From Escherichia coli (GTDB lineage: Bacteria; Pseudomonadota; Gammaproteobacteria; Enterobacterales; Enterobacteriaceae): a DNA stretch of 49,610 nt. Every line of letters begins with the position of its first letter. Position 1 is the first letter of the stretch. A program made the position numbers and the translations under genes. Positions 1-49,610 of the stretch are shown here, piece by piece. The DNA lies in assembly GCA_036348995.1 (NCBI GenBank), contig GCA_036348995.1_4855.1. One strand, written 5' to 3'. The notes under the pieces are model-generated. The model was not told the origin of the DNA. It worked only from the letters and a program-made list of their open reading frames with translations, and ran no database searches.

Positions 1-127
1 CAAATATTCGGCGGGAAATGAATCAGCAAGCACCCATCCAAGATACACAGACATCGCCATTACCGGAATGAACACCAGAAACGCGACCATGCCAGTGCAA
101 GCGAAACCCAGCACATACATGATCATG
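1..127. repeat. terminal direct repeat, copy 1 (identical to 49484..49610)
   Basis: 127/127 nt identity between window start and end, read directly; implies circular or terminally redundant genome. Confidence 0.95.
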
Positions 128-316: not shown

Positions 317-345
317 TTGACGTAGATTGATGGGGTGTTTATAGT
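317..345 (+). promoter_or_regulatory. sigma70-like promoter (TTGACG-N17-TATAGT) for first plus-strand island
   Basis: TTGACG 317-322, 17-nt spacer, TATAGT 340-345; near-identical cassette at 12729..12757. Confidence 0.5.
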
Positions 346-385
346 AATGACGTAGAAACAACAATAAATGTTAGAGGTGATGAAG

Positions 386-904
386 ATGCCAAACCATGTA
401 ACAAACAGAATCACGATTGTTTGTGCTGACAAGCAAAGCATTGATGAATTTAAAGATGGATGTATTACCAATGGTGCCATTGATTTTAATAAAATAATCC
501 CATTGCCACCATTTATCGCAAATGGCAATGGTTTGACGGTCGGGAGCAGAGAGGATGGTACTGGGCGTAATTGGTACAAATTCCACCTGGATAAATGGGG
601 AACGAAATGGAATGCTTATGATTGCTCAATTGTAGAGCAAGAAAATAAAATGATTATTACATTTGATACTGCATGGTCAGAACCTGAAGAAATAGTACGA
701 GAAATCCACAAATGGTTTCCTGAATTTATGTTAACACACGAATATTTTGATGAGGGTTGGGGTTTCTTTGGGTGTAAAAGATATGGAGCGCTTGGTATAT
801 TTGGAGGTACATATAAGGATAGGGTGGAAAATGAAGATTTATTTATGAAATTGTGCATTGAATTAAAAGGATACAATCCGGACGAAGATGAGGATGAAGA
901 ATAA
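386..904 (+). CDS. hypothetical Trp-rich protein with poly-acidic C-terminal tail (DEDEDEE)
   Basis: ORF with SD GAGGTGA 374-380; in-frame ATGs at 368/380/386; stop overlaps next start (TAATG). Confidence 0.55.
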   Translation: MPNHVTNRITIVCADKQSIDEFKDGCITNGAIDFNKIIPLPPFIANGNGLTVGSREDGTGRNWYKFHLDKWGTKWNAYDCSIVEQENKMIITFDTAWSEPEEIVREIHKWFPEFMLTHEYFDEGWGFFGCKRYGALGIFGGTYKDRVENEDLFMKLCIELKGYNPDEDEDEE

Positions 905-1713
905 TGACAACCCTATCCAAACGTTACGCAAACGCAGAAACGCGCAACGGTATTGCTGTTAACAAAACCTATCTCGTGCCAGTGGAGCGAATCTATCTGG
1001 AGCCGGGATATAACATCCGTGAAGCAGATGAGCAGCATGTGGAGTATTTCGCGCAGTGCTGGGAGTCAGGTCAGCCGCTACCAGCATTAACAGTTATTCC
1101 AGATGAGAAGGGAATCCGCATTCTTGATGGTCAGCATCGCTATCTCGGCGCATTGCGTGCTATTGATCGTGGCGCACCAATCGTTCGCATTGAGTGCAAA
1201 GATTTCACTGGCGATGAGGCGGATAAAATTGCCTTCATGGTGTCATCCAGCCAGGGTAAGCAGCTTGACCCGTTTGAGCGCGCGAAGGCTTACACGAGAC
1301 TGAAAGGCTTTGGCTGGACGAATGAAGAAATCGCCAAGAAGGTAGGGCGCTCAGTGTCTGATGTGCAAATGCATCTGTCGCTGGGTAATGTGCCAGCGGA
1401 GGTGAAAGCGCGCATCAGTGCAGGGCAAATCAGCTATGCAAATGCCGTAGCGGTAACGCGAGAGCATGGTGATGATGCGGTTAAAGTTATCGATGAGGCC
1501 GTGGAAGAGGCGAAGGAGCAAGGCAAGGATAAAGTTACAGCGAAGGTGCTGAGGTCGAAAAAGATTAAGCCAGTAGACCGCCTGATTGAGTTATTGAAGC
1601 AAGCCGACCATGTAATTCTTCCCGCTGGCCATGAGTTGAAGGAGGATGAGGAATTTATCCAGATTCCTGTTGCTGATATTCACGAGGTTATGGCAATTCT
1701 GGAGAAGATGTGA
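904..1713 (+). CDS. ParB-like nuclease-domain protein with DGQHR motif (DndB/DpdB/DUF262-like)
   Basis: motif ILDGQHRYLGALRA; translationally coupled to flanking genes. Confidence 0.7.
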   Translation: MTTLSKRYANAETRNGIAVNKTYLVPVERIYLEPGYNIREADEQHVEYFAQCWESGQPLPALTVIPDEKGIRILDGQHRYLGALRAIDRGAPIVRIECKDFTGDEADKIAFMVSSSQGKQLDPFERAKAYTRLKGFGWTNEEIAKKVGRSVSDVQMHLSLGNVPAEVKARISAGQISYANAVAVTREHGDDAVKVIDEAVEEAKEQGKDKVTAKVLRSKKIKPVDRLIELLKQADHVILPAGHELKEDEEFIQIPVADIHEVMAILEKM

Positions 1714-1886
1714 TGACACCAGAACAATTCATCGAAAAACAGCTGCGCGCCAAACTTCCTGGAATCGACCAGATGGCAATTGATGCGGCAATCCAGTATT
1801 ACAAGAGCAATCAGAGCGCAAAGAAGGGCGGTATTTTTGAAGAATGCATGAAGGTTGCAAAGCAACATATGATTAAGGTGAAGTGA
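1713..1886 (+). CDS. small hypothetical protein (57 aa)
   Basis: ATGA overlaps at both ends; hand translation MTPEQFIEKQLRAK... Confidence 0.45.
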   Translation: MTPEQFIEKQLRAKLPGIDQMAIDAAIQYYKSNQSAKKGGIFEECMKVAKQHMIKVK

Positions 1887-2422
1887 TGAAACTAAAAATC
1901 AGCAAATTATTACTTGAGTCAGCATTAATATTTCAGGCGCGCAATGATGTGCGATATTACCTGAATGGCATCTGCTTTATGACTGATGGTCGTATTGCGT
2001 CAACTGACGGTCATCGCGCATTCATTGGTGGCAGCCATGACAATAAGCTGACAGAAAGTGTGATTATCAAGATTGGCAAGTCACCAACAAAACGCTATGA
2101 GTACGCCATACTTGATACTAAGTCGAAAATTGCAACGTATCATGATGAAGCTGGTGTGATGGTTGGCTCTGGTATCTGCGAAGAGATTGATGGTCGATTC
2201 CCTGATATTGATCGCGTGATACCAAAGGAAACGAAAGCAGCAGAGGAAATTAGCTTCAATTCTGGCTACCTTGTTGATATTGAGAAAGTGGCGAAGCTGT
2301 TTAACCCTAAATTCAGTAGCGTTAAGTTTGAACTGAATGGAAATACAAATGCCGCAGTTTGCTGTCTTAGTGCGCCAACTGGCGAGACTGCGAAGATTGT
2401 TGTTATGCCTATTCGCCTGTAG
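1886..2422 (+). CDS. truncated DNA polymerase III beta sliding-clamp (DnaN) homologue, about 1.5 domains
   Basis: motifs DVRYYLNG, STDGHRAF, DGRFPDIDRVIPKE, SFNSGYLVD and C-terminal IVVMPIRL match E. coli DnaN domain II and end of domain III (from memory). Confidence 0.75.
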   Translation: MKLKISKLLLESALIFQARNDVRYYLNGICFMTDGRIASTDGHRAFIGGSHDNKLTESVIIKIGKSPTKRYEYAILDTKSKIATYHDEAGVMVGSGICEEIDGRFPDIDRVIPKETKAAEEISFNSGYLVDIEKVAKLFNPKFSSVKFELNGNTNAAVCCLSAPTGETAKIVVMPIRL

Positions 2423-2464
2423 CAATCAAAAGACCCTGACTAGGTGTTTTGTTTATAATAAATA

Positions 2465-2506
2465 TTGACGTAGATACCTAATGACCGCAATATGAGTGAT
2501 GTAGAT
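2465..2506 (+). promoter_or_regulatory. promoter region with TTGACGTAGAT and GTGATGTAGAT motifs upstream of PP-loop gene
   Basis: TTGACG 2465-2470; GTAGAT 2501-2506; SD AAGGAG 2511-2516. Confidence 0.4.
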
Positions 2507-2526
2507 ATAAGAAAGGAGCGACGGAC

Positions 2527-3339
2527 ATGAATCAAGTTATTAGCTTTTCAGGCGGTAGAACTTCAGCGTTTATGACGCTGGAGGTGCTGAAGATACATCC
2601 AGAAGCAGAGGTTATATTTATGGACACTGGAGCAGAGCACCCAAAAACGTATGAGTTTATTCGCAACTTCGCAAAGCATTTCAATGTCGCCGTGACGTGT
2701 CTTCGTGTGGTGCCAAATCATGAGATGCGCAAAGCAAGTACGTATGAGCAGCTAACCGTCGATGAGATTGGTCCAGACCTTGAGCCGTGGCGGAGGGTGT
2801 TGCGCAAGTACGGTCATCCATATGTTGGTGGGGCGTTTTGCACAGACAGAATGAAGACTGTGCCATTCACGAAATACTGCAATGAAAAATACGGGAAAGG
2901 AAATTACGAAAGGTGGCTTGGTATAAGGATTGATGAGCCAAACAGACTAAAAAACCGGGCTGATGGTTTTCATTACCTTGCAGACATCAGCGACTTTGAA
3001 AAGCAGGATATCCTTGACTGGTGGTCAACGCAACCATTCGACCTTGGTATTCAGGAGCATCTTGGTAATTGCGTTTTCTGCATCAAGAAGAGCCTGCAGA
3101 AAGTTGCACTTGCTGCAAAGGATGAGCCGGAACTTGCTGCTGAATTTTGGAAGATGATTCAGGATGAAGATAAAAAACCAGACAAGATAATGTATCGTTC
3201 AAACAGAAGCCTTGGCGACGTTATAGCTTTATTTAACGATGTAAGCAGGAATGAACTGGCATCACGGATGACTTCAATGCGCCAGTACGATCCTGGTTCA
3301 TGCAGCGAGAGTTGCGAAGCATTTTCTAATGAGAATTAA
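2527..3339 (+). CDS. PP-loop ATP-pyrophosphatase superfamily enzyme (PAPS-reductase/DndC/QueC-like) with C-terminal Cys cluster
   Basis: N-terminal SFSGGRTS PP-loop; CxxC and CxxxC near C-terminus; SD AAGGAG. Confidence 0.75.
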   Translation: MNQVISFSGGRTSAFMTLEVLKIHPEAEVIFMDTGAEHPKTYEFIRNFAKHFNVAVTCLRVVPNHEMRKASTYEQLTVDEIGPDLEPWRRVLRKYGHPYVGGAFCTDRMKTVPFTKYCNEKYGKGNYERWLGIRIDEPNRLKNRADGFHYLADISDFEKQDILDWWSTQPFDLGIQEHLGNCVFCIKKSLQKVALAAKDEPELAAEFWKMIQDEDKKPDKIMYRSNRSLGDVIALFNDVSRNELASRMTSMRQYDPGSCSESCEAFSNEN

Positions 3340-3343
3340 TGAC

Positions 3344-3370
3344 AAGCCCTCAATCGAGGGCTTTATTTAT
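3344..3370. terminator. bidirectional intrinsic terminator
   Basis: hairpin AAGCCCTC-AATC-GAGGGCTT followed by T-run. Confidence 0.7.
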
Positions 3371-3632: not shown

Positions 3633-4703
3633 TTACACCGCAGTTTGCGTTCCGTAACCGTTGAACACTTTGGACTTACCAGTGAAATCCTTACGGATTT
3701 GCAGGCCCATAGCAGACCACACGAGGAAGTTGAAGTTATCGTGCGGGTTGACGCGAGCTGCCGCATAGGTGGAAACGGGCTGAGCAACACGCGGGCGGAT
3801 GTACATGTCGTTGCGAACATAGCCAACGAAATGGTTGCCAGTCAGCAGGAAGTTGGTGCCAATCTTGCCGATGCGACCATTGCCGAACTGCGTGATGTAC
3901 TGCTCAACTGTGCCACCTTTGAAACCAGCCGCATCAGAATACGGACGCATGAAGCTACGACGTACCGCCGGGGAAACCCACAGAGTCACCTGCTCAAATA
4001 CGTTCTGCGCATCCAGAATTGCCTGGAAATCCTGATTGAAGAAGGTCACGATTTCGTCTGGCGTTGCGGTTTGCAGGTCGATATTCAGGCCGCTGGAAGC
4101 ATTCAGGTTAACCTGAATAGTGTTCGGGTGGTTGGTGATACCATAGCCAGTGTAAACGCCGTTCACGTTCAGAGTCTGGTCGCCAGTCAGCAGATACTGC
4201 GCCATGTCTGAACGCAGATTAAAGGTGACGTTAGCCTGATCGTCCAACAGTGGGTCAAAACCTTCAGACTGCATACCCAGCAGTTCGCGCCATTCGCGAC
4301 TGTAGCCAGTCTTGAAGATTGGAATCACATCACCAGTGTAATCGTAGCGAGTTTTATCCAAATCTTCCGGTTCCTGACCAGACAGGGTGCGCACAACCTT
4401 GCCAGCATCGGAAGCAATGCGGCTGATTGCCACAGTCTTACCAATGTTGATGTTTGCCGCGATACCCATCAGGTCAGCCATCATGTCCTGACCAGCTTCG
4501 TTGCGGAAAACGCGGGTGGTTACGTTGTCCACGTCGCGCCAGTAATCTTTCGTTACCAGTGCGGTAGCGTTCACACCGTAAGTTTTCGCCAGTTCAGCTT
4601 CTGCATTGCAGAACACCTTACGGTCGATGGTGAGATGTTTCCATTGGTCAGCCACCACTGCGGAGTTGGCTACCAAGTCTTTGGTAAAAATAATCTTTTC
4701 CAT
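3633..4703 (-). CDS. major capsid protein (putative)
   Basis: 356-aa ORF in lambda-like order protease/scaffold - decoration - capsid; no specific motif recognised. Confidence 0.6.
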   Translation of the reverse strand: MEKIIFTKDLVANSAVVADQWKHLTIDRKVFCNAEAELAKTYGVNATALVTKDYWRDVDNVTTRVFRNEAGQDMMADLMGIAANINIGKTVAISRIASDAGKVVRTLSGQEPEDLDKTRYDYTGDVIPIFKTGYSREWRELLGMQSEGFDPLLDDQANVTFNLRSDMAQYLLTGDQTLNVNGVYTGYGITNHPNTIQVNLNASSGLNIDLQTATPDEIVTFFNQDFQAILDAQNVFEQVTLWVSPAVRRSFMRPYSDAAGFKGGTVEQYITQFGNGRIGKIGTNFLLTGNHFVGYVRNDMYIRPRVAQPVSTYAAARVNPHDNFNFLVWSAMGLQIRKDFTGKSKVFNGYGTQTAV

Positions 4704-7734: not shown

Positions 7735-8223
7735 TCATACTCCTGCTTCTTGCGTTTCGCTTTCCCCATGATTACCTCTTACATTGCGAAGAAGTGAATT
7801 AAACAGATTGCTCACGTTTACTTCCTGCTCCTGCCATGAGTAACGCCATAGCTTCTTGTGGTGGTCATAGCTTCGCGTCACATCGCCGTTATGAAACATG
7901 ATTCGGATGCGGCTTTTCACGATGCGATAATCAATGCCAGTGGCAGCGCTGATTTCTTTCACCTCTGCGCCAGCGCTATCAAGCAAATGACACTTAATTG
8001 CATCATCAATACCAGCGGCATCATCAGAGATGAAATATTTATACTGCCACTTCCCACCGCGAATCACTGACTTCTCTCGGCGAATGAAGCCAAGTGCGAG
8101 CATCTCATGCAAACGATGCGTTGTGGTGCTTGAATGCTTACCGCCGCAATGCTTTTCAATGTATGCTCGCGTTGCGCCAGGATGATTGAGAATCACGCGC
8201 ATGATTTGTGACTTATAGTCCAT
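7735..8223 (-). CDS. hypothetical protein, possible DNA-binding
   Basis: ORF track, start moved to internal Met (MDYKSQ...) after HNH stop; DNA-binding role is a guess. Confidence 0.35.
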   Translation of the reverse strand: MDYKSQIMRVILNHPGATRAYIEKHCGGKHSSTTTHRLHEMLALGFIRREKSVIRGGKWQYKYFISDDAAGIDDAIKCHLLDSAGAEVKEISAATGIDYRIVKSRIRIMFHNGDVTRSYDHHKKLWRYSWQEQEVNVSNLFNSLLRNVRGNHGESETQEAGV

Positions 8224-8734
8224 AATCGCGCTCCGATGCTGCCTGGTTGAAGTCGTCGACGGTGTAGAGGTGTCCGTGATTTTTGAATTTCCCTTGTTTT
8301 TCACTCCTGTACTTAATTAACGCATTAATAGCATCTTGCTTTGTGTCAAAGTGACCAATTGTTTTTCTCATGCAATCAGCACGCCATTTTCCTCTACATG
8401 AAACAAACCACACACCCTTGACGCCAGACCTATTGGTGCTTGGCTGTGGCTTATTCCATTCATTTTGTTGTCTTGTTGCCTTTCTCAGATTGCAAATTCT
8501 GTTGTCATCCTTTACACCGTTAATGTGATCTATTTCATGTTCAGGCCATTCACCGTAAACATAAAACCATGCCAATCTATGAGCCAATCTCTTTTTTCCT
8601 AGCAGCCTTATGTGTATATATCCCCTGGATGTTTTTGTTCCGCATGCATTACCGTTCTTTCTCCTGAACTCACCTGTGTCCGGATTATAGTCAATTAACT
8701 GCAATACAGTATCGTGATTAAGATCGCATTTCAT
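8213..8734 (-). CDS. HNH homing endonuclease with AP2-like domain
   Basis: EIDHINGVKDDNRICNLR HNH motif; GVKGVW...GKWRA AP2-like. Confidence 0.8.
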   Translation of the reverse strand: MKCDLNHDTVLQLIDYNPDTGEFRRKNGNACGTKTSRGYIHIRLLGKKRLAHRLAWFYVYGEWPEHEIDHINGVKDDNRICNLRKATRQQNEWNKPQPSTNRSGVKGVWFVSCRGKWRADCMRKTIGHFDTKQDAINALIKYRSEKQGKFKNHGHLYTVDDFNQAASERDYGL

Positions 8735-9510: not shown

Positions 9511-9726
9511 ATGCCAAGACCACGACGCGAGCCGATGGACATTATCACCAGCATTGTGGAGAAGCGGCAGCCGCTGACACTCCGTGATGTTCGCTACTTT
9601 GCCCGTTGCTATGTGGCAATGGCTGATATGCCTAAAGATGAGATGTACCAGATGATTCGGGCCAACTTCAGTGTTGACGAGAATAATAAAGTCACAATGA
9701 AAAGGGGTGATGATGAATTGGAATGA
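9511..9726 (+). CDS. hypothetical protein
   Basis: SD AAAGGAG then ATG 9511. Confidence 0.4.
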   Translation: MPRPRREPMDIITSIVEKRQPLTLRDVRYFARCYVAMADMPKDEMYQMIRANFSVDENNKVTMKRGDDELE

Positions 9727-10210
9727 TGTATTCGAATACCGTGATGGTCAGTTGTATTGGAAGATAAGGCCTGCGAATAGGGTTAAGGTTGGTGACATTG
9801 CTGGGTCAAAAAACAATAAAGGCTATCTTTTATTTGATTTCAAAGGCAAAAAACACCCTGCGCACAGGGTGATCTGGGAAATGCATTACGGTACTATTCC
9901 GGATGGAATGGAAATTGACCACATAAACCACATCCGTGATGACAACAGAATTGAAAATCTTCGCCTTGCTAGTCATGCGGAAAATACCCGCAACATGTCA
10001 AAGCACAGATACAACACTAGTGGAGTGACTGGTGTGTGCTGGCATAAGCACCAAAGGAAGTGGGTAGCACAGATAATGTTTGACGGAAAGTATACATGCC
10101 TAGGTTATTTTGTCGATTTTGATGAGGCTGTAAGATGCAGAAAATCAGCAGAATTAAATTTAGGATTTCACAGCAATCATGGGGATTTAAAAAGAAATGA
10201 ACCTGAATGA
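9707..10210 (+). CDS. HNH homing endonuclease (NUMOD4-like N-term, HNH, AP2-like C-term)
   Basis: EIDHINHIRDDNRIENLR; GVTGVCWHKHQRKWVAQI. Confidence 0.85.
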   Translation: MMMNWNDVFEYRDGQLYWKIRPANRVKVGDIAGSKNNKGYLLFDFKGKKHPAHRVIWEMHYGTIPDGMEIDHINHIRDDNRIENLRLASHAENTRNMSKHRYNTSGVTGVCWHKHQRKWVAQIMFDGKYTCLGYFVDFDEAVRCRKSAELNLGFHSNHGDLKRNEPE

Positions 10211-14479: not shown

Positions 14480-16835
<2,356 letters not shown>

Positions 16836-16863: not shown

Positions 16864-17376
16864 TCAAGCGCCGTGGTTCTCATGGAAGCCGAGTTTCCTT
16901 TCAGCCGATTTCCTCGCCAGTACAGCATCTTCAAATCGCGCATGTCTCCCGAGACTGTGCATCACACCATCTTTTTTTATGTATGCATACCACTTTTCTG
17001 TCAGATTGCACCACGATACACCAACAACACCTGACGTATTTCTTGATGTTTTACTCCTATTCATGGCGTTTTGCTGGCGAGACACGAGTCTTAAGTTTTC
17101 AATGTGGTTATCTGTTCTTATGTGGTTCACATGGTCAATCTCCATTCCATCTGGTATCTCACCATTGTGCATTTCCCATATAATGCTGTGAACAGATTTC
17201 ACCTCTTGATTTACTTTTACATACAAGTAGCCATTTGTCGGGGATAGTCTTCCAGCGATATCGCCTGGCTTATTGTATCTATTCCTGTTAACCTTTAACC
17301 AGAAAATTTTCCCGTCAGAGTAATGAAATATTTCATTCCAGTTCATCTCAGTCACTCCACCTTTCCAGTTTATCAA
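16864..17376 (-). CDS. HNH homing endonuclease (NUMOD4/HNH/AP2-like), start may be internal
   Basis: EIDHVNHIRTDNHIENLR; paralogous to 9707..10210. Confidence 0.8.
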   Translation of the reverse strand: MINWKGGVTEMNWNEIFHYSDGKIFWLKVNRNRYNKPGDIAGRLSPTNGYLYVKVNQEVKSVHSIIWEMHNGEIPDGMEIDHVNHIRTDNHIENLRLVSRQQNAMNRSKTSRNTSGVVGVSWCNLTEKWYAYIKKDGVMHSLGRHARFEDAVLARKSAERKLGFHENHGA

Positions 17377-18427: not shown

Positions 18428-18458
18428 AAAAGCCCTCATTCGAGGGCTTTATTTTTAT
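18428..18458. terminator. bidirectional intrinsic terminator
   Basis: hairpin AAAGCCCTC-ATTC-GAGGGCTTT plus T-run. Confidence 0.7.
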
Positions 18459-20989
18459 CGCCTGCGCCGGATTAGCATCCCGCTACCGCGCTGAACGATA
18501 TGGTCATTGAGTGCGTAACGAACTGCATCCCAGTAGTGGTTGTATGCATCAACAATATCCGTGAGCACATTCCCTGTCAGCTTATCGACCTTGTAGCTGT
18601 ACATTGCTGCCTCATTCTGCATCTCCTTGCATCGTTCGTGAATGATGATGCTGTCGCAGCCGCGTAACCATGTTACTCCATCCTCGACACTTCCGGGCCA
18701 TTTCGTGCATGGGTGAATGTCAAGTCCTGAACGCTTGATGTGGCTGATGGTTTCTGGTCGTGCGCAGTCGGCATACCATCGCGCGCGCTTAGCCATCGGG
18801 AATGATTGCTCCATCGCAGCTGGCGTATCGGTAATTTCAAGGCCGACCTTGCCGTACTCGCGATTAATATAAATGTTGCGTCGTCCGACCGGTAATTCTT
18901 CGATATAAACCTCAACCATTGCGGTAGGGTCCGTACTGAATCCGAAGTCCATCCCGAAGTATGGTCCATGCCATTCAGGTTTGACCTCGAAGTTATCAAT
19001 GCGCCACTTGCCACCAAATACCTGCTCGTCATTCCTCTTGTTAAAGCGCCCACCCCAAACCCATTGATAGCGGTCGAAGTCTGTCTCTTTCATGCGTTGC
19101 ATTTGGCTTGGCAGTGGAGTATCCCAAAACCACGGATTATCTGAATAGTTACACTCAATAATCAGGTTTTCTTCGTCCTCGTAAATACCGCCATTGGAAC
19201 GCAGTTTACTGTAAAACGGCTCAACCCACGTCTTCCATGTAGGGTCGTGCTCCTTATTTGGGTTGAATGTCACCCATATCTCAGAGCCGTCTGCGCGAAT
19301 GGTTGGAGTGAGGATTTCCCAGCTTGTCTGGCTAACGTTTTCAGCCTCCTCAACCCAAGCAACTGTAATGCCAGCAAAACCTTTAACGGTAGTCTGGTTG
19401 CGATACAGACCTTTAAAGCGGAACTTTGCTTTCGTTACCTTGTGTGTTATTTCGTTGTTGATGACGCGAAACTCTTTTGTCTCGCCCTTCCTGTCAATCT
19501 CGTCTTTCAGCTCCTGATATGAACTATCCTCAATAGACTGCTGAATCTCACGAAAACAAGCTATCCTGTCAGGCTTAAAGCGTGCACGCTCGGTAAGTAT
19601 TGTAGTTACTGTTCTTGTTTTTCCGCTGTTATGTGTAACCGTGCCATCAGCAAGCAGGAAAAGATGATCGCCATCAAGAGTGAATCCAGCGTATTCACCA
19701 TGCCCGGCATAAGACAATGACACCTCAGTCATCTTTCCACGGGTTGACTTGGTTTTCTCTGCCATCTTCCTTTTTACTCGGCATGGGATTGTATGAAGGT
19801 CACCACTAACGAACACCTCCCACACATCCTTTTCGTATATTCTTTTCTCGCCTTTATATTCAAAGGTGACATCGGTCTTTTTAATTATGCTTGACTTGAA
19901 GCCAAGCGATCTTGCCACATCCATCAAAGAGAAGGCTATATCTTTATTTATTGATGTAAAACAATAGCTTTTCTTTTCTTTGTGGTAATGCGAATCAGTA
20001 TCCAATAGCCCAGCCAGAATCTGAAGTCTTACCTCTCTGCTGTTTTTGATATAGCAGTCAGGTATGTGTTTATTATTAATCACCCCAAGCTGCTGCATTT
20101 TAGTTAGTAACGGGTTGGTGTTTTTCCCCATACCAGCAGCTCGACCATTAGTTATCGCATAGACGGGGCATCTATCATCGTCGCGAACCTTTACCTGCAT
20201 CCCGTATTGGCTTGCCACGTTGTAAAGGTAGTCAACTATCTCTGGATCAGGTGTGCACACTTCAACACTACGAGATGAGCCATCACCTAACCATAAACCA
20301 AGAAAGTACGGGTCAACTGGAACGCTTTGCTCCTGAAAATCCCATCCTGTTCGCCAACCTTTAAAGACATGACGGAACTTTTTGGAAGTTGCGCGCGACA
20401 AATATTCTGAAACACCGATATTAAGTATTTCCGGGTCATTTGGGTAATAACGATAAATTCTTTTACCATCAGGTGTTTTCGTCTCATTACTGATGGCAGA
20501 TGGGACCTTTCGTAATGACAGTATGTGACTTGAATTGACGGTGTAGTCATCAGCATATTTTTGATGAACCGTGTACATGTCATCAAATCCACGGCAGATG
20601 CTTAAAACATTTCGTGGTTTACTGTCTGGCCCCATAACCTTATCGCCAACAACGATATCCTCTACGCGTTTTAGGCTACCATCAAACATCCTCACCATCG
20701 TGCCGATGGCTAAGCATCCGCGCCCGCCAAACACAATCTTATTTCGCTTGGGGTAAAGTAGCTTTTCCAGCTTTTCTGGTATCAGGTGGTCAACGTTAAT
20801 ATCAGAGTCGCTAACGTCATCAACTCCGCTTTGCGTCATTTTGAGTTTGCGAACAATCTTCTTATCTGTATTAACAACACCGAACACAGCAGATTCAGGC
20901 GTATCAATCACGCCATCGCCAATAATCTCTTCAAGTTTTTCAATTGCTGGTGCTGACAGTCTTTTGCGTGCCATATATAGATTCCTCAT
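18455..20989 (-). CDS. terL: terminase large subunit interrupted by an intein
   Basis: Walker A GGRG|SGKT split by a 363-aa insertion; 481-aa extein. Confidence 0.9.
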   Translation of the reverse strand: MRNLYMARKRLSAPAIEKLEEIIGDGVIDTPESAVFGVVNTDKKIVRKLKMTQSGVDDVSDSDINVDHLIPEKLEKLLYPKRNKIVFGGRGCLAIGTMVRMFDGSLKRVEDIVVGDKVMGPDSKPRNVLSICRGFDDMYTVHQKYADDYTVNSSHILSLRKVPSAISNETKTPDGKRIYRYYPNDPEILNIGVSEYLSRATSKKFRHVFKGWRTGWDFQEQSVPVDPYFLGLWLGDGSSRSVEVCTPDPEIVDYLYNVASQYGMQVKVRDDDRCPVYAITNGRAAGMGKNTNPLLTKMQQLGVINNKHIPDCYIKNSREVRLQILAGLLDTDSHYHKEKKSYCFTSINKDIAFSLMDVARSLGFKSSIIKKTDVTFEYKGEKRIYEKDVWEVFVSGDLHTIPCRVKRKMAEKTKSTRGKMTEVSLSYAGHGEYAGFTLDGDHLFLLADGTVTHNSGKTRTVTTILTERARFKPDRIACFREIQQSIEDSSYQELKDEIDRKGETKEFRVINNEITHKVTKAKFRFKGLYRNQTTVKGFAGITVAWVEEAENVSQTSWEILTPTIRADGSEIWVTFNPNKEHDPTWKTWVEPFYSKLRSNGGIYEDEENLIIECNYSDNPWFWDTPLPSQMQRMKETDFDRYQWVWGGRFNKRNDEQVFGGKWRIDNFEVKPEWHGPYFGMDFGFSTDPTAMVEVYIEELPVGRRNIYINREYGKVGLEITDTPAAMEQSFPMAKRARWYADCARPETISHIKRSGLDIHPCTKWPGSVEDGVTWLRGCDSIIIHERCKEMQNEAAMYSYKVDKLTGNVLTDIVDAYNHYWDAVRYALNDHIVQRGSGMLIRRRR
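19628..20716 (-). mobile_element. intein with LAGLIDADG homing endonuclease inside terL P-loop
   Basis: starts Cys (CLAIG), ends HN followed by Ser; LGLWLGDGS and LAGLLDTDS motifs. Confidence 0.85.
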
Positions 20990-23287: not shown

Positions 23288-23911
23288 TCACCCTATTTCA
23301 CATATCATATAAACTTTCCTCATTAGGCCGTCAAACAGCATTGGGTGTATAGAATCACATAACCCCTTCATTTGCTTTGCTTGCTTTATCTTTTCATTCT
23401 TCCATGCCTGATGCGCTTCAATCACCGAACTGAAATAGCCTAAAAATACTGTACGACCATTACCATCACCTATGTGCGCCTGATAAGCGCCAGAACACTT
23501 ATTAAATGACACACCTATAGGCAAGTCACCTCTCGAGGCATTCCTTGCTGTCACGAAGTTGTTTAGGTGTGGAGGAACGTAAACACATGCTTCAGGTGAG
23601 TAAGTCAAATTACCCGGAATCAATATATCCTTATCAAGGTGCCACCCTTCGACGTAATGGTTCTTCCACCACAAATTAAAGTTTGAAAACAGCAGCCACT
23701 CATTACAACAAGTAACATGCTCATAGGTTTTGTGTTGTTTTTTGTATTCATCATCAAAACACCTCCTGAGCATTTGATACCATTGGCTATATCCATAATG
23801 CTGCACCTTTTTACCATCAACTTTCATCGCCACACCGAAGCCACAATCATTAACTCCAACACCAAATATTGGCTTTCTTTTCCCTTTCTTTATATCTCTG
23901 TTAAGCTCCAT
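23288..23911 (-). CDS. divergent HNH/AP2-like endonuclease candidate
   Basis: C-terminal AP2-like GVSFNKCSGAYQAHIGDGNGRTVFLGYF; WHLDKD...SPEACVYV core. Confidence 0.4.
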   Translation of the reverse strand: MELNRDIKKGKRKPIFGVGVNDCGFGVAMKVDGKKVQHYGYSQWYQMLRRCFDDEYKKQHKTYEHVTCCNEWLLFSNFNLWWKNHYVEGWHLDKDILIPGNLTYSPEACVYVPPHLNNFVTARNASRGDLPIGVSFNKCSGAYQAHIGDGNGRTVFLGYFSSVIEAHQAWKNEKIKQAKQMKGLCDSIHPMLFDGLMRKVYMICEIG

Positions 23912-24038
23912 TTTTATGGAGAGATTTTTCTTTTGCATTTCTTTTCCTCATGGCCTTTAGTCTGCAATATGGACAGCAGTACTTCTTGTCACTTCTGCAT
24001 CCTGGCAACAGTTCTTTCCCGCACATCAAGCACTTCAT
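23901..24038 (-). CDS. zinc-ribbon microprotein (about 45 aa)
   Basis: MKCLMCGKELLPGCRSDKKYCCPYCRLKAM from hand translation. Confidence 0.3.
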   Translation of the reverse strand: MKCLMCGKELLPGCRSDKKYCCPYCRLKAMRKRNAKEKSLHKNGA

Positions 24039-28300: not shown

Positions 28301-28692
28301 TTAACTACAAGTTCATCGTAATGAAAGGATTGTTTGATTACTTTGAATCCGAAGACCCTGAAGGTGGTCATCACAACGCAATCTCTCTGATGACAGGTAA
28401 ACACCTGATGGAGGTTTACTACTGGAAGTTTCCCGTATTCCGTTGCAATATGGGAGTCTGCATTGATGATGACGTTTTGTTTTGCAGGATAAAATACAAA
28501 AACAATATTGGCATAGTAACAGCTGCATACAGGGATGTTGCAAAAAAATCAGGGAACTGGCATCCAAGCGAAGTATTCGCTGGTGACGCACTATTTAATT
28601 TCTGTAAGGCGTTTGGTGTTTTGTATGAGGATGTAAGCAAAGAGTATAGCGGAAGGCGTGAGAAAGATAGCTTAAGCTCAAAAGGAGCATAA
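28297..28692 (+). CDS. hypothetical protein
   Basis: ORF track. Confidence 0.4.
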   Translation: MINYKFIVMKGLFDYFESEDPEGGHHNAISLMTGKHLMEVYYWKFPVFRCNMGVCIDDDVLFCRIKYKNNIGIVTAAYRDVAKKSGNWHPSEVFAGDALFNFCKAFGVLYEDVSKEYSGRREKDSLSSKGA

Positions 28693-28695
28693 CAA

Positions 28696-28724
28696 AAAGC
28701 CCGCAAACGCGGGCTTTATTATTT
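28696..28724. terminator. bidirectional intrinsic terminator
   Basis: hairpin AAAGCCCGC-AAAC-GCGGGCTTT plus T-run. Confidence 0.7.
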
Positions 28725-28964
28725 AACAATCCATTTTGTAACAGCTGGCCTTAAATCTTCCTTTCTGAAAACTCCACCAGTAAGTTTCTCGGCATCAATT
28801 GCTGCTGTAGCGCTAATTCTTCCTCTTGACACCCACTGATTGACAGCCTGTTTTGACACACCAAGAAACCTTGCCAGTTGTGATTGCCCTCCAACATAAT
28901 CAATCAGCTCTGATAGCTTTGTCTGTTCCATTTCTCTTATCTGTTCTGCGATGCTTTTCATGTG
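28719..28964 (-). CDS. Cro/YdaS-like helix-turn-helix regulator
   Basis: QSQLARFLGVSKQAVNQWVSRGR; lone minus-strand gene inside replication island. Confidence 0.55.
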   Translation of the reverse strand, partial: HMKSIAEQIREMEQTKLSELIDYVGGQSQLARFLGVSKQAVNQWVSRGRISATAAIDAEKLTGGVFRKEDLRPAVTKWIVK

Positions 28965-29095
28965 TTTACCTCTGCTATCTGTATGCAGCAATAATGAACT
29001 CAAAAAAAATTTTCGTCAAGGTATTGCGTTTACCATCACGTTGACGTATCTTTAAGTCACACCAGCGATATGCTGAGTTAAATCGAGAGGACACT

Positions 29096-29938
29096 ATGAG
29101 CTTATCAATGATTCAAAAACCAAAACCGGCAGCACCAATCATAACATTGGTTGGTACTCCAGGTGTAGGCAAGACAACTCTTGCAGCGCTATTCCCAAGC
29201 CCAGTGTTTATTCAGGCTGAAGAGATCACTGGTGTTTTTGACGACTGGGATGATGAAAAGAAACCAGATTCATTTCCTGTACTGAAGCGAGCTGATGCTA
29301 AACGCAAAACAAGCACAAAGGATGATTTGCTGTCACAGCTACGCGCATTAATTACTGAGGAACATAATTACAAAACGCTTGTAATTGACTCAATCACAAG
29401 CCTGCATTCAATGTTTGAACATGAGGTTTGTGAAAATTACGGTGTTGACAACGTTGGTTCTGCGGCTGGCGGTTACAATAAAGGATATATTGTTGTTTCT
29501 GAAATGCACGCTGAAATAATAAATGCATGTAAGTATCTTCGCAAAGAAAAAGGGATGAGCATTATTTATCTTGCACACGCAGGTGTTAAAAAGATGAAGA
29601 ATCGCCCTGATGCTGATGAATACACCGTTTACACACTTGACATGCATGATGCTTCAGTTTCTGGTTATGTGAATCTTAGTGATGCTGTTATTTACATCAG
29701 AAATGAAGAGTTTGTGAAAGGGACTGAGACTGATAAGAAAGGGCAAGTCACTAAGTTTGGGAAGGTTGTTCAGACTGGTCAGCGAGTTCTTATCACCTCT
29801 GGTGACGGTCGGGTTGGGTATGTTAATGCAAAAAACAGATACAACCTTGAACCTGAAATTCCTTTTGAAAAAGGTGAGAACCCACTTTTGAGTGAGATTA
29901 AATATTATGCATCTATACGAGATAACCAAACAGCTTAA
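29096..29938 (+). CDS. Sak4-like RecA-fold ATPase (recombination)
   Basis: Walker A GTPGVGKTT; adjacent to SSB-like gene. Confidence 0.6.
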   Translation: MSLSMIQKPKPAAPIITLVGTPGVGKTTLAALFPSPVFIQAEEITGVFDDWDDEKKPDSFPVLKRADAKRKTSTKDDLLSQLRALITEEHNYKTLVIDSITSLHSMFEHEVCENYGVDNVGSAAGGYNKGYIVVSEMHAEIINACKYLRKEKGMSIIYLAHAGVKKMKNRPDADEYTVYTLDMHDASVSGYVNLSDAVIYIRNEEFVKGTETDKKGQVTKFGKVVQTGQRVLITSGDGRVGYVNAKNRYNLEPEIPFEKGENPLLSEIKYYASIRDNQTA

Positions 29939-30386
29939 TGAACTGCTGGCGATGGAGGATATTCCACGTGAGCAGATTGAAGATACCATCAATCTTATTG
30001 AAGAGGAGTTTGAAGGAAAGGCTGAAATGGTTGCTGCTTACATTCGTGAGCTTGAAGCTGATGAAGCTGGACTTAAATCCGAGATTGACCGTCTTTCTGA
30101 GCGTAAGCGTGTCTTAGTTGCGAAGATTGATAACCTTAAAGATTATCTTCGTCAAAACATGATGGCGTCAGGAAAGACAAATATCAAAGGTAAGTTGTTC
30201 AGTATCACTCTTGGCAAACCGTCACCAGTTCTTGATGTGTTTGTTCCTGTTGAACAGCTTCCTGAGCAGTACCGGGTTGTGAAAGTGTCGGCAGATAACG
30301 CAGCAATTAAAAATGCGATAAAAGCCGGGATTGAAATTAAGGGTTGTGCCATCACCGACGGCAAACCGAAACTGATCATCAAATAA
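29907..30386 (+). CDS. hypothetical protein (Gp157-like?)
   Basis: position between Sak4-like and SSB-like genes. Confidence 0.35.
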   Translation: MHLYEITKQLNELLAMEDIPREQIEDTINLIEEEFEGKAEMVAAYIRELEADEAGLKSEIDRLSERKRVLVAKIDNLKDYLRQNMMASGKTNIKGKLFSITLGKPSPVLDVFVPVEQLPEQYRVVKVSADNAAIKNAIKAGIEIKGCAITDGKPKLIIK

Positions 30387-30403
30387 ATCGAGAGGACACA
30401 AAA

Positions 30404-30925
30404 ATGGGTTTCTGGAATCTTTCTGACGGTAAAGCTGTTGAATCTAAATCTGAATTTGAACTTGGTGGTGGTTTTGAAGTAATTCCTGATGGTAGCCGTG
30501 TTCTTGCTGCCGTTGAAGAATGTAAAGACGACCAGTGGGAAGGTGAGCGATTCTTCAATCTTAAGTGGCGAATCCTTGAGGGTGAGTATAAAAATCGCAT
30601 CATCTTCCAGAAGCTGAAAGTATTTAGCTCAAAAGAAAAGCAGCGCGACAATGCTATCACTATGCTTGCAGCAATTGACACAAACGCCGGTGGTAAGCTG
30701 ATGGCATCAGGGAAAGAGCCGACTGATTTTGCTATTGCCAGCGCGCTTGCAAATCGCCCAATGATTCTTCTTCTGCGCGTTTGGGAGTCTGAGGATAAGC
30801 AAAAAACTGGTAACTATGTGGCTGGCGTTTTCAGTCGTCAACAGACAAAAGCAGCACCTGCTCCTAAGCAATCTGCACCGTCTAACGAGCCTCCGATGGA
30901 CTTTAGTGATGATGTGCCTTTTTAA
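30404..30925 (+). CDS. ssDNA-binding-like protein with SSB-type acidic C-terminal tip (PMDFSDDVPF)
   Basis: C-terminus matches E. coli SSB tip; N-terminal domain divergent. Confidence 0.6.
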   Translation: MGFWNLSDGKAVESKSEFELGGGFEVIPDGSRVLAAVEECKDDQWEGERFFNLKWRILEGEYKNRIIFQKLKVFSSKEKQRDNAITMLAAIDTNAGGKLMASGKEPTDFAIASALANRPMILLLRVWESEDKQKTGNYVAGVFSRQQTKAAPAPKQSAPSNEPPMDFSDDVPF

Positions 30926-30978
30926 TTTAGATTGGAATGACAGGGCCATTCGTGGCCCTTTTTATTCGAGAGGACACT

Positions 30979-32847
30979 ATGAAAGTACAGCTTAGAACAT
31001 ACCAACAAGAAGCTGTTGATTCTGTTATAGGTCATATTCGTTCAAGCGTTTCATCGTGCATGATCATCTTGCCTACAGGGTCTGGAAAAAGCGTTGTTGT
31101 TGCATCAATCGCCGATTGGGTATTTAAAAATACTGGAAAGCGCGTTCTGTGTGTTGCCCCAACAAGCGAGTTAGTTGTGCAAAACAGGCAGCGTTATCTT
31201 TCTCTGACAGGAGAACCAGCCAGCATGTTCAGTGCAAAGGCTGGACCAAAGAACCTGCGTCATCCGGTGGTGTTTGGTTCACCAGTTACAATCAAGAACT
31301 CAATAGAGATGTTTGGTGACAAGTATGGTGCTGTCATTATTGATGAGTGCGATGGAATAACACCAACCATTAAATTTATTATTAATGAAATGAAGCGTCG
31401 CAATCCAAAGCTGCGTGTTATTGGAATGACTGCTACGCCTTACCGCCTTGGAACTGGATACATCTACAAAGAGCACTACCTCGATGGTCCTACAGATGAA
31501 GAAACTGCCATTGACCCATATTATGATAAGGTTGTTTATGAGCTTGAGGCTAAATTCCTCATTGAAAACGGATACCTTACGCCGCCAGTTACAGAGCCTG
31601 TTGTTGATGAATATGATACGTCTTGTCTTGAAAAGGATAAGTTGGGTCGGTACACAACATCTTCAGTTGAAAAGGCGATGGTTGGCAAAGGAAGGAAGAC
31701 ATCACGTATTGTTGAAGATATTATCCGTCGCTCTGTTAATCGGCGCGGAACGATGATTTTTGCCAGTACTAAGAAACACGCTATGGAGATAATGGAGTCA
31801 CTTCCTCCCGGTTCTTATAGTTATGTTTTTGGTGATATGCCAACAGCAGATCGCAACAAGGCAATATCAGACTTCAAGGCACAAAAAGTTAAATACATCG
31901 TTAACCAGAATATCCTTACTGTAGGGGTGGATGTTCCTCATTGTGATCATATAGCAGTCATGAGAGCCACAGAATCACCAAGGCTCTACCAGCAAATAAT
32001 TGGCAGAGGGACGCGCCTTTATGAAGGCAAGGAAGATTTTCTTGTCAGCGATTACGCAGGCAACATTCAGCGCCACTTTTCTGAGACTGGGGACTTATTC
32101 ACTCCAGAAATAAAAGCAACAAGGAAAAAACCATCCGTGCCAATGGATGTTAAATGCCCTCTTTGTGGCTTTATTAATGAATTTGGTGTGCGTCCAAATC
32201 CTGAAAATCTTGAAGTTGACAAGGAAGGTTACTGGCTTGATTTGGCTGGTGACAGGGTGATGATTGATATTTTTGATAAATCAGGTGAAAAAATTGGAAG
32301 CAAGCCTATGCCTGCTCATTTTGGGAGGAGGTGTAAAAACTACGTTATGCACGGGCCATTAAGGGAAATGCACAGGTGTACTTATAAGTGGTCGGTGAAA
32401 GAGTGTCCTGATTGTGGATTTGAAAATGATATAGCGGCAAGAAACTGCACATCATGCGGTGCTGAAATCATTGACCCAAACCAAAAGCTAAAAGAAGAAG
32501 CTGACAGGCTTGATTCTTCTCCTTATGCAACAAAGCAATCAAGCGTAACCATGATGAACATCATGAAGCATTACGTTTCAAGTGGTGAAGATTTGGTGCA
32601 CGTAAAATTTGCTATTGACCAGAAGCCATTTTTTGTTAGCAAGTTCTACAACCCAAACTCTGAGAAGGAATGGATGAAGAAGGAGTGGGAAGAGTTTTGC
32701 GGGAAGTGCTTTGGTGAATCTGACATGTCAATTGAGGATGCAATAGCAAGAAGAGATGAAGCTGTCGCGCCATCAGTGATCATGTTCAGAAGAGACAAGG
32801 GTAGTAAATATTTCAACGTTAAAGGCATGTATTGGGGGGTATTATGA
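30979..32847 (+). CDS. SF2 DNA helicase with C-terminal zinc ribbons
   Basis: LPTGSGKS, DECD, TATP, QIIGRGTR; CPLCGF and CPDCGF. Confidence 0.85.
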   Translation: MKVQLRTYQQEAVDSVIGHIRSSVSSCMIILPTGSGKSVVVASIADWVFKNTGKRVLCVAPTSELVVQNRQRYLSLTGEPASMFSAKAGPKNLRHPVVFGSPVTIKNSIEMFGDKYGAVIIDECDGITPTIKFIINEMKRRNPKLRVIGMTATPYRLGTGYIYKEHYLDGPTDEETAIDPYYDKVVYELEAKFLIENGYLTPPVTEPVVDEYDTSCLEKDKLGRYTTSSVEKAMVGKGRKTSRIVEDIIRRSVNRRGTMIFASTKKHAMEIMESLPPGSYSYVFGDMPTADRNKAISDFKAQKVKYIVNQNILTVGVDVPHCDHIAVMRATESPRLYQQIIGRGTRLYEGKEDFLVSDYAGNIQRHFSETGDLFTPEIKATRKKPSVPMDVKCPLCGFINEFGVRPNPENLEVDKEGYWLDLAGDRVMIDIFDKSGEKIGSKPMPAHFGRRCKNYVMHGPLREMHRCTYKWSVKECPDCGFENDIAARNCTSCGAEIIDPNQKLKEEADRLDSSPYATKQSSVTMMNIMKHYVSSGEDLVHVKFAIDQKPFFVSKFYNPNSEKEWMKKEWEEFCGKCFGESDMSIEDAIARRDEAVAPSVIMFRRDKGSKYFNVKGMYWGVL

Positions 32848-49192: not shown

Positions 49193-49609
49193 TTATAGAT
49201 TTGAATCAGCGAAAAAACAATGGCGACCACGCCAAGAATAATGTCCAATTTCGCCGCCCCATTTAAAAGTGATGGAAAGGATGAACAGATGGATGCCGAT
49301 AATAATAAATGCGTACTGCGCATGAAGCGGCGTTTCTACAGGCGTGATAAATTCCCATACGAATGACTCTATCGCAACCAGCCATTCGTAAAGGCTCATT
49401 GTCAGCACGCAGAGCGCCATCTTTGTACTTTTGCGCAGTGCAATAGCCGGGAACAACCAGACCATAGACTGCGCAAGGTAATACAAATATTCGGCGGGAA
49501 ATGAATCAGCAAGCACCCATCCAAGATACACAGACATCGCCATTACCGGAATGAACACCAGAAACGCGACCATGCCAGTGCAAGCGAAACCCAGCACATA
49601 CATGATCAT
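49193..49609 (-). CDS. multi-pass membrane protein, 5-prime end runs off the window into the terminal repeat
   Basis: 3-4 hydrophobic segments; in copy 1 an upstream in-frame ATG lies at 148-150. Confidence 0.4.
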   Translation of the reverse strand: MIMYVLGFACTGMVAFLVFIPVMAMSVYLGWVLADSFPAEYLYYLAQSMVWLFPAIALRKSTKMALCVLTMSLYEWLVAIESFVWEFITPVETPLHAQYAFIIIGIHLFILSITFKWGGEIGHYSWRGRHCFFADSNL

Positions 49610-49610
49610 G
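49484..49610. repeat. terminal direct repeat, copy 2 (identical to 1..127)
   Basis: exact 127-nt match to window start. Confidence 0.95.

Follow-up and report, generated by a model that had tools for sequence, protein, structure and literature searches.

A half-length phage relative of the beta sliding clamp that retains the client-binding pocket

Several described clamps bear comparison with mini-beta, a phage-encoded protein of 178 amino acids (aa) whose gene lies on a stretch of 49,610 nucleotides (the window: contig GCA_036348995.1_4855.1 of the Escherichia coli assembly GCA_036348995.1). The beta clamp of DNA polymerase III (Pol III; DnaN, 366 aa in E. coli, PDB 1MMI/2POL) shares with mini-beta domain II, the last half of domain III, the pocket that binds client proteins and the C-terminal VVMPxRL, but mini-beta is half as long, has lost one channel helix, is basic instead of acidic, and has neither domain I nor the first half of domain III, hence no head-to-tail dimer interface and no beta2 ring. 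Full-length phage DnaN homologues and T4 gp45, some of which came up in the fold search with mini-beta, are phage-borne clamps too, but form complete rings (a dimer of three domains or a trimer of two), which need a clamp loader and serve a polymerase of the phage or the host. The herpesvirus factors UL44, PF-8/ORF59, BMRF1 and UL42 have no detectable sequence relationship to mini-beta; the loader-independent, C-shaped dimers of the UL44/PF-8 type share the clamp fold with it, but UL44-type factors have two full domains per chain that pair edge to edge through their sheets, whereas mini-beta is predicted to complete a half-domain, and their partner is the C-terminus of the virus’s own polymerase. 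A natural N-terminal shortening is also seen in E. coli beta*, a shorter dnaN product made from an internal start and reported in the 1990s as inducible by ultraviolet light. Like mini-beta, beta* has no domain I and keeps the pocket, but it is host-encoded and has complete domains II and III, whereas mini-beta is the product of a separate phage gene, is 31% identical to DnaN and has half of domain III missing.

Both ends of the window (1-127 and 49484-49610) are identical over 127 bp, leaving 49,483 bp of unique sequence, and because of this overlap the window was taken to be a complete circular genome assembly. Its DNA is about 91-92% identical to that of the Salmonella/E. coli siphophages LPST10, BS5, IME207 and Skate, and of the phages Bas77, Bas79 and Bas80 from the BASEL collection. 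The open reading frame (ORF) for mini-beta is intact (1886..2422, + strand; 178 aa plus stop, MKLKIS…VVMPIRL). An initial annotation of this DNA had recognized the frame, correctly, but gave it 179 aa, a length that counts from an alternative GTG at 1883. The ATG at 1886 was preferred because a Shine-Dalgarno-like AAGGTG lies a few bases 5′ of it and because it shares bases with the stop codon of an upstream ORF of 58 aa (TGATG; …GTGAAGTGATGAAA…). The parts of mini-beta, with their counterparts in E. coli beta, are the following:

1886..2422, + strand: mini-beta coding sequence, homologous to DnaN (PHROG 3007, E 4e-61; AlphaFold2 model with pLDDT 97.2 and pTM 0.91)
1886..2224, + strand: aa 1-113, equivalent of domain II (beta ~130-249), with a helix at 7-16 and strands as in beta; a loop and a strand (73-77) take the position of helix alpha2 (aa 62-80)
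1946..1969, + strand: DVRYYLNG, aa 21-28 (beta 150-157); R23 and L26 correspond to pocket residues R152 and L155
2003..2017, + strand: TDGHR, aa 40-44 (beta T172-R176), wall of pocket subsite I; the equivalent of H175 bridges both subsites
2189..2227, + strand: DGRFPDIDRVIPK, aa 102-114 (beta 238-250), inter-domain connector with the pocket residues P242, R246 and V247
2228..2419, + strand: half-domain, aa 115-178, a single beta-alpha-beta-beta-beta unit (beta 313-366; 29.5 against 7.9 bits, see below) and predicted self-pairing surface
2255..2269, + strand: FNSGY, aa 124-128; N125 and Y128 correspond to beta N320 and Y323 (pocket subsite II)
2399..2419, + strand: C-terminal VVMPIRL, aa 172-178 (beta V360-L366), pocket floor; M174 and P175 are present in at least 91% of the family

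The similarity to DnaN, which had been proposed from shared motifs, proved significant in three kinds of search and was far above chance. When PDB sequences were searched with phmmer, 38 beta clamps were matched at E≤1 and nothing else; the top matches were Enterobacter and E. coli beta (E 6e-11 to 4e-10), with aa 7-153 of mini-beta on beta 136-288. BLASTP against DnaN of strain MG1655 gave 31% identity over beta 136-250 (E 4e-12), and a profile built from 132 diverse family members found E. coli beta among PDB sequences at E 1.1e-30. The AlphaFold2 monomer model based on the same 132-member alignment was highly confident (predicted local distance difference test, pLDDT, 97.2; predicted template modelling score, pTM, 0.91), and its fold was that of a DNA clamp in a fold search. 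Scores against the established clamp models were low: 37.6 bits for the equivalog TIGR00663 (cutoff 137.65), 17.8 and 15.1 bits for PF02767 and PF02768 (both under cutoffs of 27), and no match to PF00712 in the Pfam scan of mini-beta. Mini-beta is a relative of DnaN, and not a DnaN itself.

Three of the motifs originally pointed out were identical in beta: DVRYYLNG, TDGHR and DGRFPD (aa 102-107, beta 238-243). In the C-terminal block, VVMPIRL (172-178) matches VVMPMRL of beta (360-366). GFN.SY.LD was only approximate, the actual residues being SFNSGYLVD. The layout of one and a half domains, without domain I and the first half of domain III, was borne out by segment scoring and by the model. 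The alignment with DnaN begins at beta 136, and domain I is absent. Because clamp domains are internally duplicated, HMMER could place the last 65 residues of mini-beta on either half of domain III; as a profile of their own, these residues reached 29.5 bits on beta 309-366, against 7.9 on beta 247-312. The C-terminal unit was for this reason matched to the second half of domain III, and beta ~253-312 has no counterpart in mini-beta. Mini-beta thereby lacks both segments of the head-to-tail interface of the beta dimer, one at the end of domain I and the other in the first half of domain III. In the AlphaFold2 model, residues 62-80 formed a loop and a short strand in place of the second channel helix of domain II (alpha2), and 61% of the family had a proline at position 68; the distant members Bcep43 gp15, P0209 and P0230 may keep a helix at this position, judging from their sequences.

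The client-binding cleft, which the initial annotation had suggested to be retained, was compared residue by residue with the pocket of E. coli beta. Subsite I consists of R152, L155, T172, G174, H175, R176, L177, P242, R246, V247, V360 and M362, and subsite II of H175, N320, Y323, V344, M362, P363, M364 and R365 (PMC11139829). Fifteen of the 17 mapped residues were identical in mini-beta, the exceptions being L177 (alanine in mini-beta) and M364 (isoleucine). The pocket also stood out within the family, the 132 aligned members of which are just 26-49% identical to the query. Columns conserved in 90% or more of them were M1, D21, R23, Y25, L26, G28, T40, G42, H43, Y128, M174 and P175, and P106 (P242 in beta) was invariant; leaving M1 aside and adding P106, these columns correspond to D150, R152, Y154, L155, G157, T172, G174, H175, P242, Y323, M362 and P363 of beta, that is, largely to the pocket. 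Most members stop within a few residues of the motif (V/I)(V/I)MPxR(L/I/V), as beta does. Since the conserved columns and the C-terminal motif belong largely to the pocket, the client pocket has been the main target of selection in the family. The pocket spans the first half of domain II, the connector between II and III and the second half of domain III; the retained parts can therefore be viewed as three consecutive half-domain units, a quarter of the ring with the pocket at its center. According to the lists of pocket residues, what mini-beta keeps would be a pocket-centered 90-degree arc.

A lone half-domain should expose a core that is normally shared with its twin. Two copies of mini-beta, joined by a Gly-Ser linker of 30 residues, were modelled with AlphaFold2 in one run on a 22-row alignment, with no negative control, and gave a pTM of 0.78 over 386 residues with disorder confined to the linker; about 0.45 is the ceiling for two halves placed independently. 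Residues 121-125 and 145-149 formed strands in both copies of the dimer, but not in the monomer model, and I122 and F124, in the first strand of the half-domain, were hydrophobic in 89% and 100% of the family. Such strands would be expected where each half-domain adds its first strand to the sheet of the other copy. In the model, the two copies are predicted to pair via their half-domains, so that a complete clamp domain is restored about a true two-fold axis, and the dimer is predicted to be a symmetric, open arc of three domains (II, III:III′, II′) with two pockets. Provided that the intra-domain pseudo-dyad is radial, as in clamp domains, the two pockets of the dimer would face opposite sides. 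The inability to form a ring, which had been assumed for this clamp fragment, is not established, because the half-domains are predicted to complement each other. Mini-beta also differed from beta in charge: its isoelectric point (pI) was 8.29 (family median 8.25), against 5.25 for E. coli beta and 5.8 for the equivalent part of it. Basic residues were conserved at positions 19, 23, 134, 137, 142 and 177, K134 and K137 being on the non-hydrophobic face of the retained helix of domain III. This charge would fit DNA binding or the electrostatic steering of acidic client tails.

Mini-beta had been described as a fragment of host-type DnaN; it belongs instead to an old and diverse phage family with a fixed short length. 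In 1.84 billion cluster representatives, 172 clusters (50% identity) were found at E≤1e-10, and 131 of the best 150 had lengths of 165-215 aa, most of them matching over nearly the full length. Two hundred and seventy-six phage records were retrieved with tblastn (phages of Salmonella, Escherichia, Klebsiella, Vibrio, Acinetobacter, Burkholderia and Proteus, for example), the match covering at least 80% of the protein in 268 of them, and a pattern scan found mini-beta on at least 513 IMG/VR contigs. In BFVD, many short phage homologues had template modelling (TM) scores of up to 0.89 (0.82-0.89 for those of the PHROG 3007 type), together with looser structural homologues from phages of Gram-positive hosts. 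Among 5,426 complete E. coli genomes, none gave a megablast match to the mini-beta variant of lambdoid phages.

The family is present in databases under several names, some of them wrong. Mini-beta matches PHROG 3007 over residues 1-178 (E 4e-61) and has the length and the DVRYYLNG, TDGH, FPD and MPxR motifs of the family. PHROG 3007 is labelled “RusA-like Holliday junction resolvase”, and many RefSeq records carry this label (NC_054646.1, NC_054645.1 and NC_048113.1, among others). The chance that mini-beta is such a resolvase is practically nil: there was no match to RusA (PF05866) even at E≤1, no nuclease motif was seen, and both the sequence and the fold are those of a clamp. The label, spread into RefSeq by Pharokka/PHROGs, should be corrected. 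Other records are closer: a GenBank note for Bcep43 gp15 reads “DNA Pol III b subunit fragment”, and the names “DNA polymerase III beta subunit” and “beta clamp domain protein” are also in use. Besides Bcep43 gp15, the named short relatives include Schulenburg gp7, Cato gp36, yong1 gp27 and a protein of Pantoea phage LIET2. The architecture, the probable assembly and the function of the family are undescribed in the literature that was searched.

Gene context was surveyed at 79 IMG/VR loci. About 45 had the arrangement of the window, with a gene for a ParB-like protein, the 58-aa ORF and capsid genes. About 28 were lambdoid, with a cI-like repressor gene on one side and, on the other, genes for a cII-like protein, mini-beta, replication protein O and a DnaB-like helicase (or a DnaC-like protein); the cultured Hafnia phage yong1 has the same kind of order (rexB-rexA-cI on one side, and cro-cII, mini-beta, initiator, replication protein and, further on, ninB-ninG on the other). 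At three loci, mini-beta was directly upstream of an SNF2/DEAD helicase gene. Elsewhere it followed RecT/YqaJ, near DnaB; lay among genes for RdgC, a DnaQ-like exonuclease, Dam and single-stranded DNA-binding protein in the Vibrio phages X29 and XM1; or stood between two methyltransferase genes, beside the primase gene, in Salmonella phage Lumpael. In Bcep43, Schulenburg, Isfahan and Cato, a lone mini-beta gene was found inside head/tail modules, often on the opposite strand.

The initial annotation had linked mini-beta to the lack of a phage polymerase. As a general rule this does not hold: the Guernseyvirinae phage SE1 has a DNA polymerase I (Pol I) gene as well as mini-beta, and in Edwardsiella phage PEi21 the mini-beta gene (28500-29069, − strand, split into two ORFs by a frameshift in its record) overlaps by 4 nt the end of a PolB-like polymerase gene (29066-31183, − strand), an overlap which suggests translational coupling of the two. 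Given these varied placements, mini-beta moves among sipho-, myo- and podophages that are unrelated to each other, as are their replication systems. Where early regions are ordered, it sits with replication and recombination genes, and gene context as a whole leans towards a role in replication.

Canonical clamp-binding motifs were looked for in phage proteins, and no candidate was consistent across lineages. A strict scan for QLxLF/QxxLxF found none in all 81 ORFs of the window, and none were found in Pol I and the helicases of SE1 or in the neighbors of mini-beta in Bas79, X29 and Bcep43. Two sequences were discarded: “QVNVL” at the N-terminus of a head protein of 428 aa, a chance match which in the Bas79 homologue is away from the N-terminus and which Bcep43 gp14 lacks, and “QLKVxL” in O proteins, which is inside the winged-helix domain and hence structural. 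The PolB-like polymerase of PEi21 has an internal QLLMRW (residues 570-575). Dam of Lumpael (15219-15860, − strand), whose gene adjoins mini-beta, ends in …QAEMMFEGKTMI (p ~0.05); this C-terminus (…LTQAEMMFEGKTMI) reads Q-x-x-M-x-F, like the clamp-binding motifs of the alpha and epsilon subunits of Pol III. Such a tail was not seen in the methyltransferases of other mini-beta carriers, and may be due to chance. Of 19 cII-like proteins whose genes immediately precede lambdoid mini-betas, seven end in Q[IV]x[MI]x[FY] and 12 do not; CII of yong1 (3684-3983, + strand) has this ending as well (an example is …DDSQVTMNF; cluster c24, on contigs L060, L064, L066, L067, L085 and L086). The tail resembles a hexameric clamp-binding motif and was kept only as a lead. 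Lambda CII has the same tail as a signal for degradation by FtsH, and lambda is not known to have a mini-beta. Since no conserved phage partner motif was found, conserved host clients are the most economical choice of ligands for the pocket.

The mini-beta family most likely captures host clamp-binding proteins. How these would be used is less certain, and we tentatively favor, as a leading possibility and not as a probable one, an open clamp remnant, possibly associated with DNA, which would serve as a loader-independent platform where host clamp clients dock for phage DNA replication. The dimer arc would sit on DNA without a clamp loader, through its basic helix face (conserved lysines/arginines 19, 23, 134, 137 and 142), and would offer canonical pockets to proteins with beta-binding motifs. 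From its charge and its placement in replication modules, docking would take place on or near phage DNA. The clients would be host proteins, in the first place Pol III alpha/epsilon, with Pol I, ligase, Hda, MutS/L and delta as further possibilities, which docking would bring to, or hold at, replication or recombination intermediates of the phage; expression would probably be early, from a sigma-70-type promoter. By analogy, such a platform would be functionally closest to the open herpesvirus clamps. The broader proposal is possible though doubtful: half-domain complementation, which rests on the linked-dimer model, may have produced an undescribed architecture (a two-fold C-clamp of three domains with pockets on opposite faces, or a D2-symmetric tetrameric ring of twelve half-domains) as a loader-independent platform that would plug host clients (Pol III, Pol I, ligase, mismatch repair proteins, Hda) into the DNA transactions of many Proteobacteria phages. 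Several points weigh against a replication platform. Host beta and its loader are present in the cell, and why a second platform should be needed is unexplained. No single “coupling” story covers lambdoids reliant on host Pol III, phages with a Pol I or PolB gene, and lytic phages with no polymerase. A lone gene within structural modules looks like an accessory gene for interaction with the host, and fits a decoy equally well. In the single linked-dimer run, with its shallow alignment and no control, AlphaFold2 may just have been completing a familiar fold. The C-terminal motif diverges in some distant members (X29 ends in CLLLCQ, and Bcep43 is extended), and a full-text literature search found no study of the family and no structure, partner or phenotype.

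A pure decoy, with no role on phage DNA, is the main rival, though it was regarded as rather unlikely. Soluble mini-beta would titrate the clamp-binding motifs of host proteins (e.g. Pol III, delta/clamp loader, Hda, MutS/L and translesion polymerases) off host beta, and so shut down or rewire host replication, repair or regulation. This would agree with a pocket that is kept while the ring-forming parts are lost, with the absence of a phage-encoded partner motif, with carriage by phages with or without a polymerase of their own, and with the lone, moron-like genes, sometimes with terminators of their own, in structural modules of unrelated lytic phages. The decoy is disfavored because many carriers (this genome and the lambdoids included) rely wholly on host Pol III and beta, and would be hurt by indiscriminate titration; moreover, a sponge needs neither a shift to basic pI nor exposed, conserved lysines on a channel-facing helix, and a constructive role agrees better with a gene that heads replication operons and is coupled to a polymerase gene. 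An improbable alternative is a closed ring with a new geometry, made of four copies (12 half-domains) with D2 symmetry and two kinds of symmetric interface, which would encircle DNA, carry pockets on either face and slide as a processivity factor: one and a half domains amount to three of the twelve half-domain units of the beta ring, apparently contiguous along the arc, the family is basic, and one of the two interfaces required is predicted by AlphaFold2, but the channel helix at the outer half-domain of II is lost in this lineage, and the host clamp loader would not match a ring that has no defined face. Poisoning of host beta dimers by mixed complexes that break or block host rings, another suggestion of the initial annotation, has homology to beta as its sole support and is very improbable because both elements of the dimer interface are missing; in addition, host beta has no free half-domain to complement, and self-complementation is predicted instead. 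Decay is less credible still. Truncation relative to DnaN and the frameshifted PEi21 copy might suggest a functionless remnant of a full-length phage dnaN, but the same short architecture, with strongly conserved motifs, intact ORFs and a confident fold, is present in at least 172 divergent clusters, and 268 of the 276 phage records match over at least 80% of the protein.

The beta pocket is a hub for bacterial polymerases, repair enzymes and replication regulators, and an antibiotic target; a widespread phage protein reduced to this pocket is a natural minimal module which would show the uses of the pocket outside the ring, and could show by what means phages gain access to host clamp clients, whether or not they encode a polymerase. 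If true, the self-complementing half-domain assembly would extend the known clamp architectures. The relatives Bas77, Bas79 and Bas80 (BASEL, E. coli K-12) make the question directly testable.

In the window, mini-beta is the fourth gene of a five-gene block that converges on capsid genes of the opposite strand. The other features of this region are:

317..345, + strand: sigma-70-like promoter (TTGACG-17-TATAGT), 10 of 12 consensus matches; a consensus match only, at a fitting position
368-3339, + strand: five-gene block including mini-beta, between the promoter and a terminator-like hairpin
368-904, + strand: DUF1281_C/Api92-like protein
904..1713, + strand: ParB-like protein (HTH_ParB, KorB), the usual upstream neighbor in this phage group (cluster c2, in ~45 of the 79 loci)
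1710..1886, + strand: 58-aa ORF, phrog_4439 (function not known), the stop of which overlaps the mini-beta ATG
2527-3339, + strand: 3′-phosphoadenosine 5′-phosphosulfate (PAPS)-reductase-like protein (PADLOC: SspD 3e-12, BrxP 6e-7)
3344..3363, + strand: intrinsic-terminator-like hairpin and T-run, directly 3′ of the last gene of the block

The TGATG overlap suggests translational coupling of the 58-aa ORF and mini-beta; the ORF is kept beside mini-beta in Bas79, a close relative, though not in distant lineages. The ParB-like and PAPS-reductase-like proteins encoded on either side of mini-beta form a pair which resembles IbrB/IbrA. Bas79 lacks the PAPS-reductase-like gene, and its ParB-like gene is separated from the 58-aa ORF by a methyltransferase gene.

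This genome encodes no DNA polymerase, as first noted: among ORFs of at least 150 aa outside longer ORFs, the sole polymerase-like domain was a Prim-Pol, and the annotated relative Bas79 likewise has no polymerase. For replication and recombination, the genome has a Prim-Pol/PriCT-2/DUF3987 protein, an AAA_24 ATPase, a Gam-like protein, a DUF669 protein and an SNF2/DEAD helicase.

Mobile elements were also observed. At least four free-standing HNH homing-endonuclease genes are present in the window (8213-8734, − strand; 9707-10210, + strand; 16864-17376, − strand; 23288-23938, − strand), three of them belonging to phrog_99. The large terminase subunit (844 aa; 18455-20989, − strand) carries an intein with Hint and LAGLIDADG domains at residues ~91-374, before Terminase_3 and Terminase_3C. 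On one of the lambdoid contigs of the locus survey (L079; 9820-12210, + strand), the DnaB-like helicase is 797 aa long, against ~460 aa in relatives, and probably carries an intein too, to judge from a central, sub-threshold LAGLIDADG match (21.7 bits against a cutoff of 22.5, E 2.4e-4).

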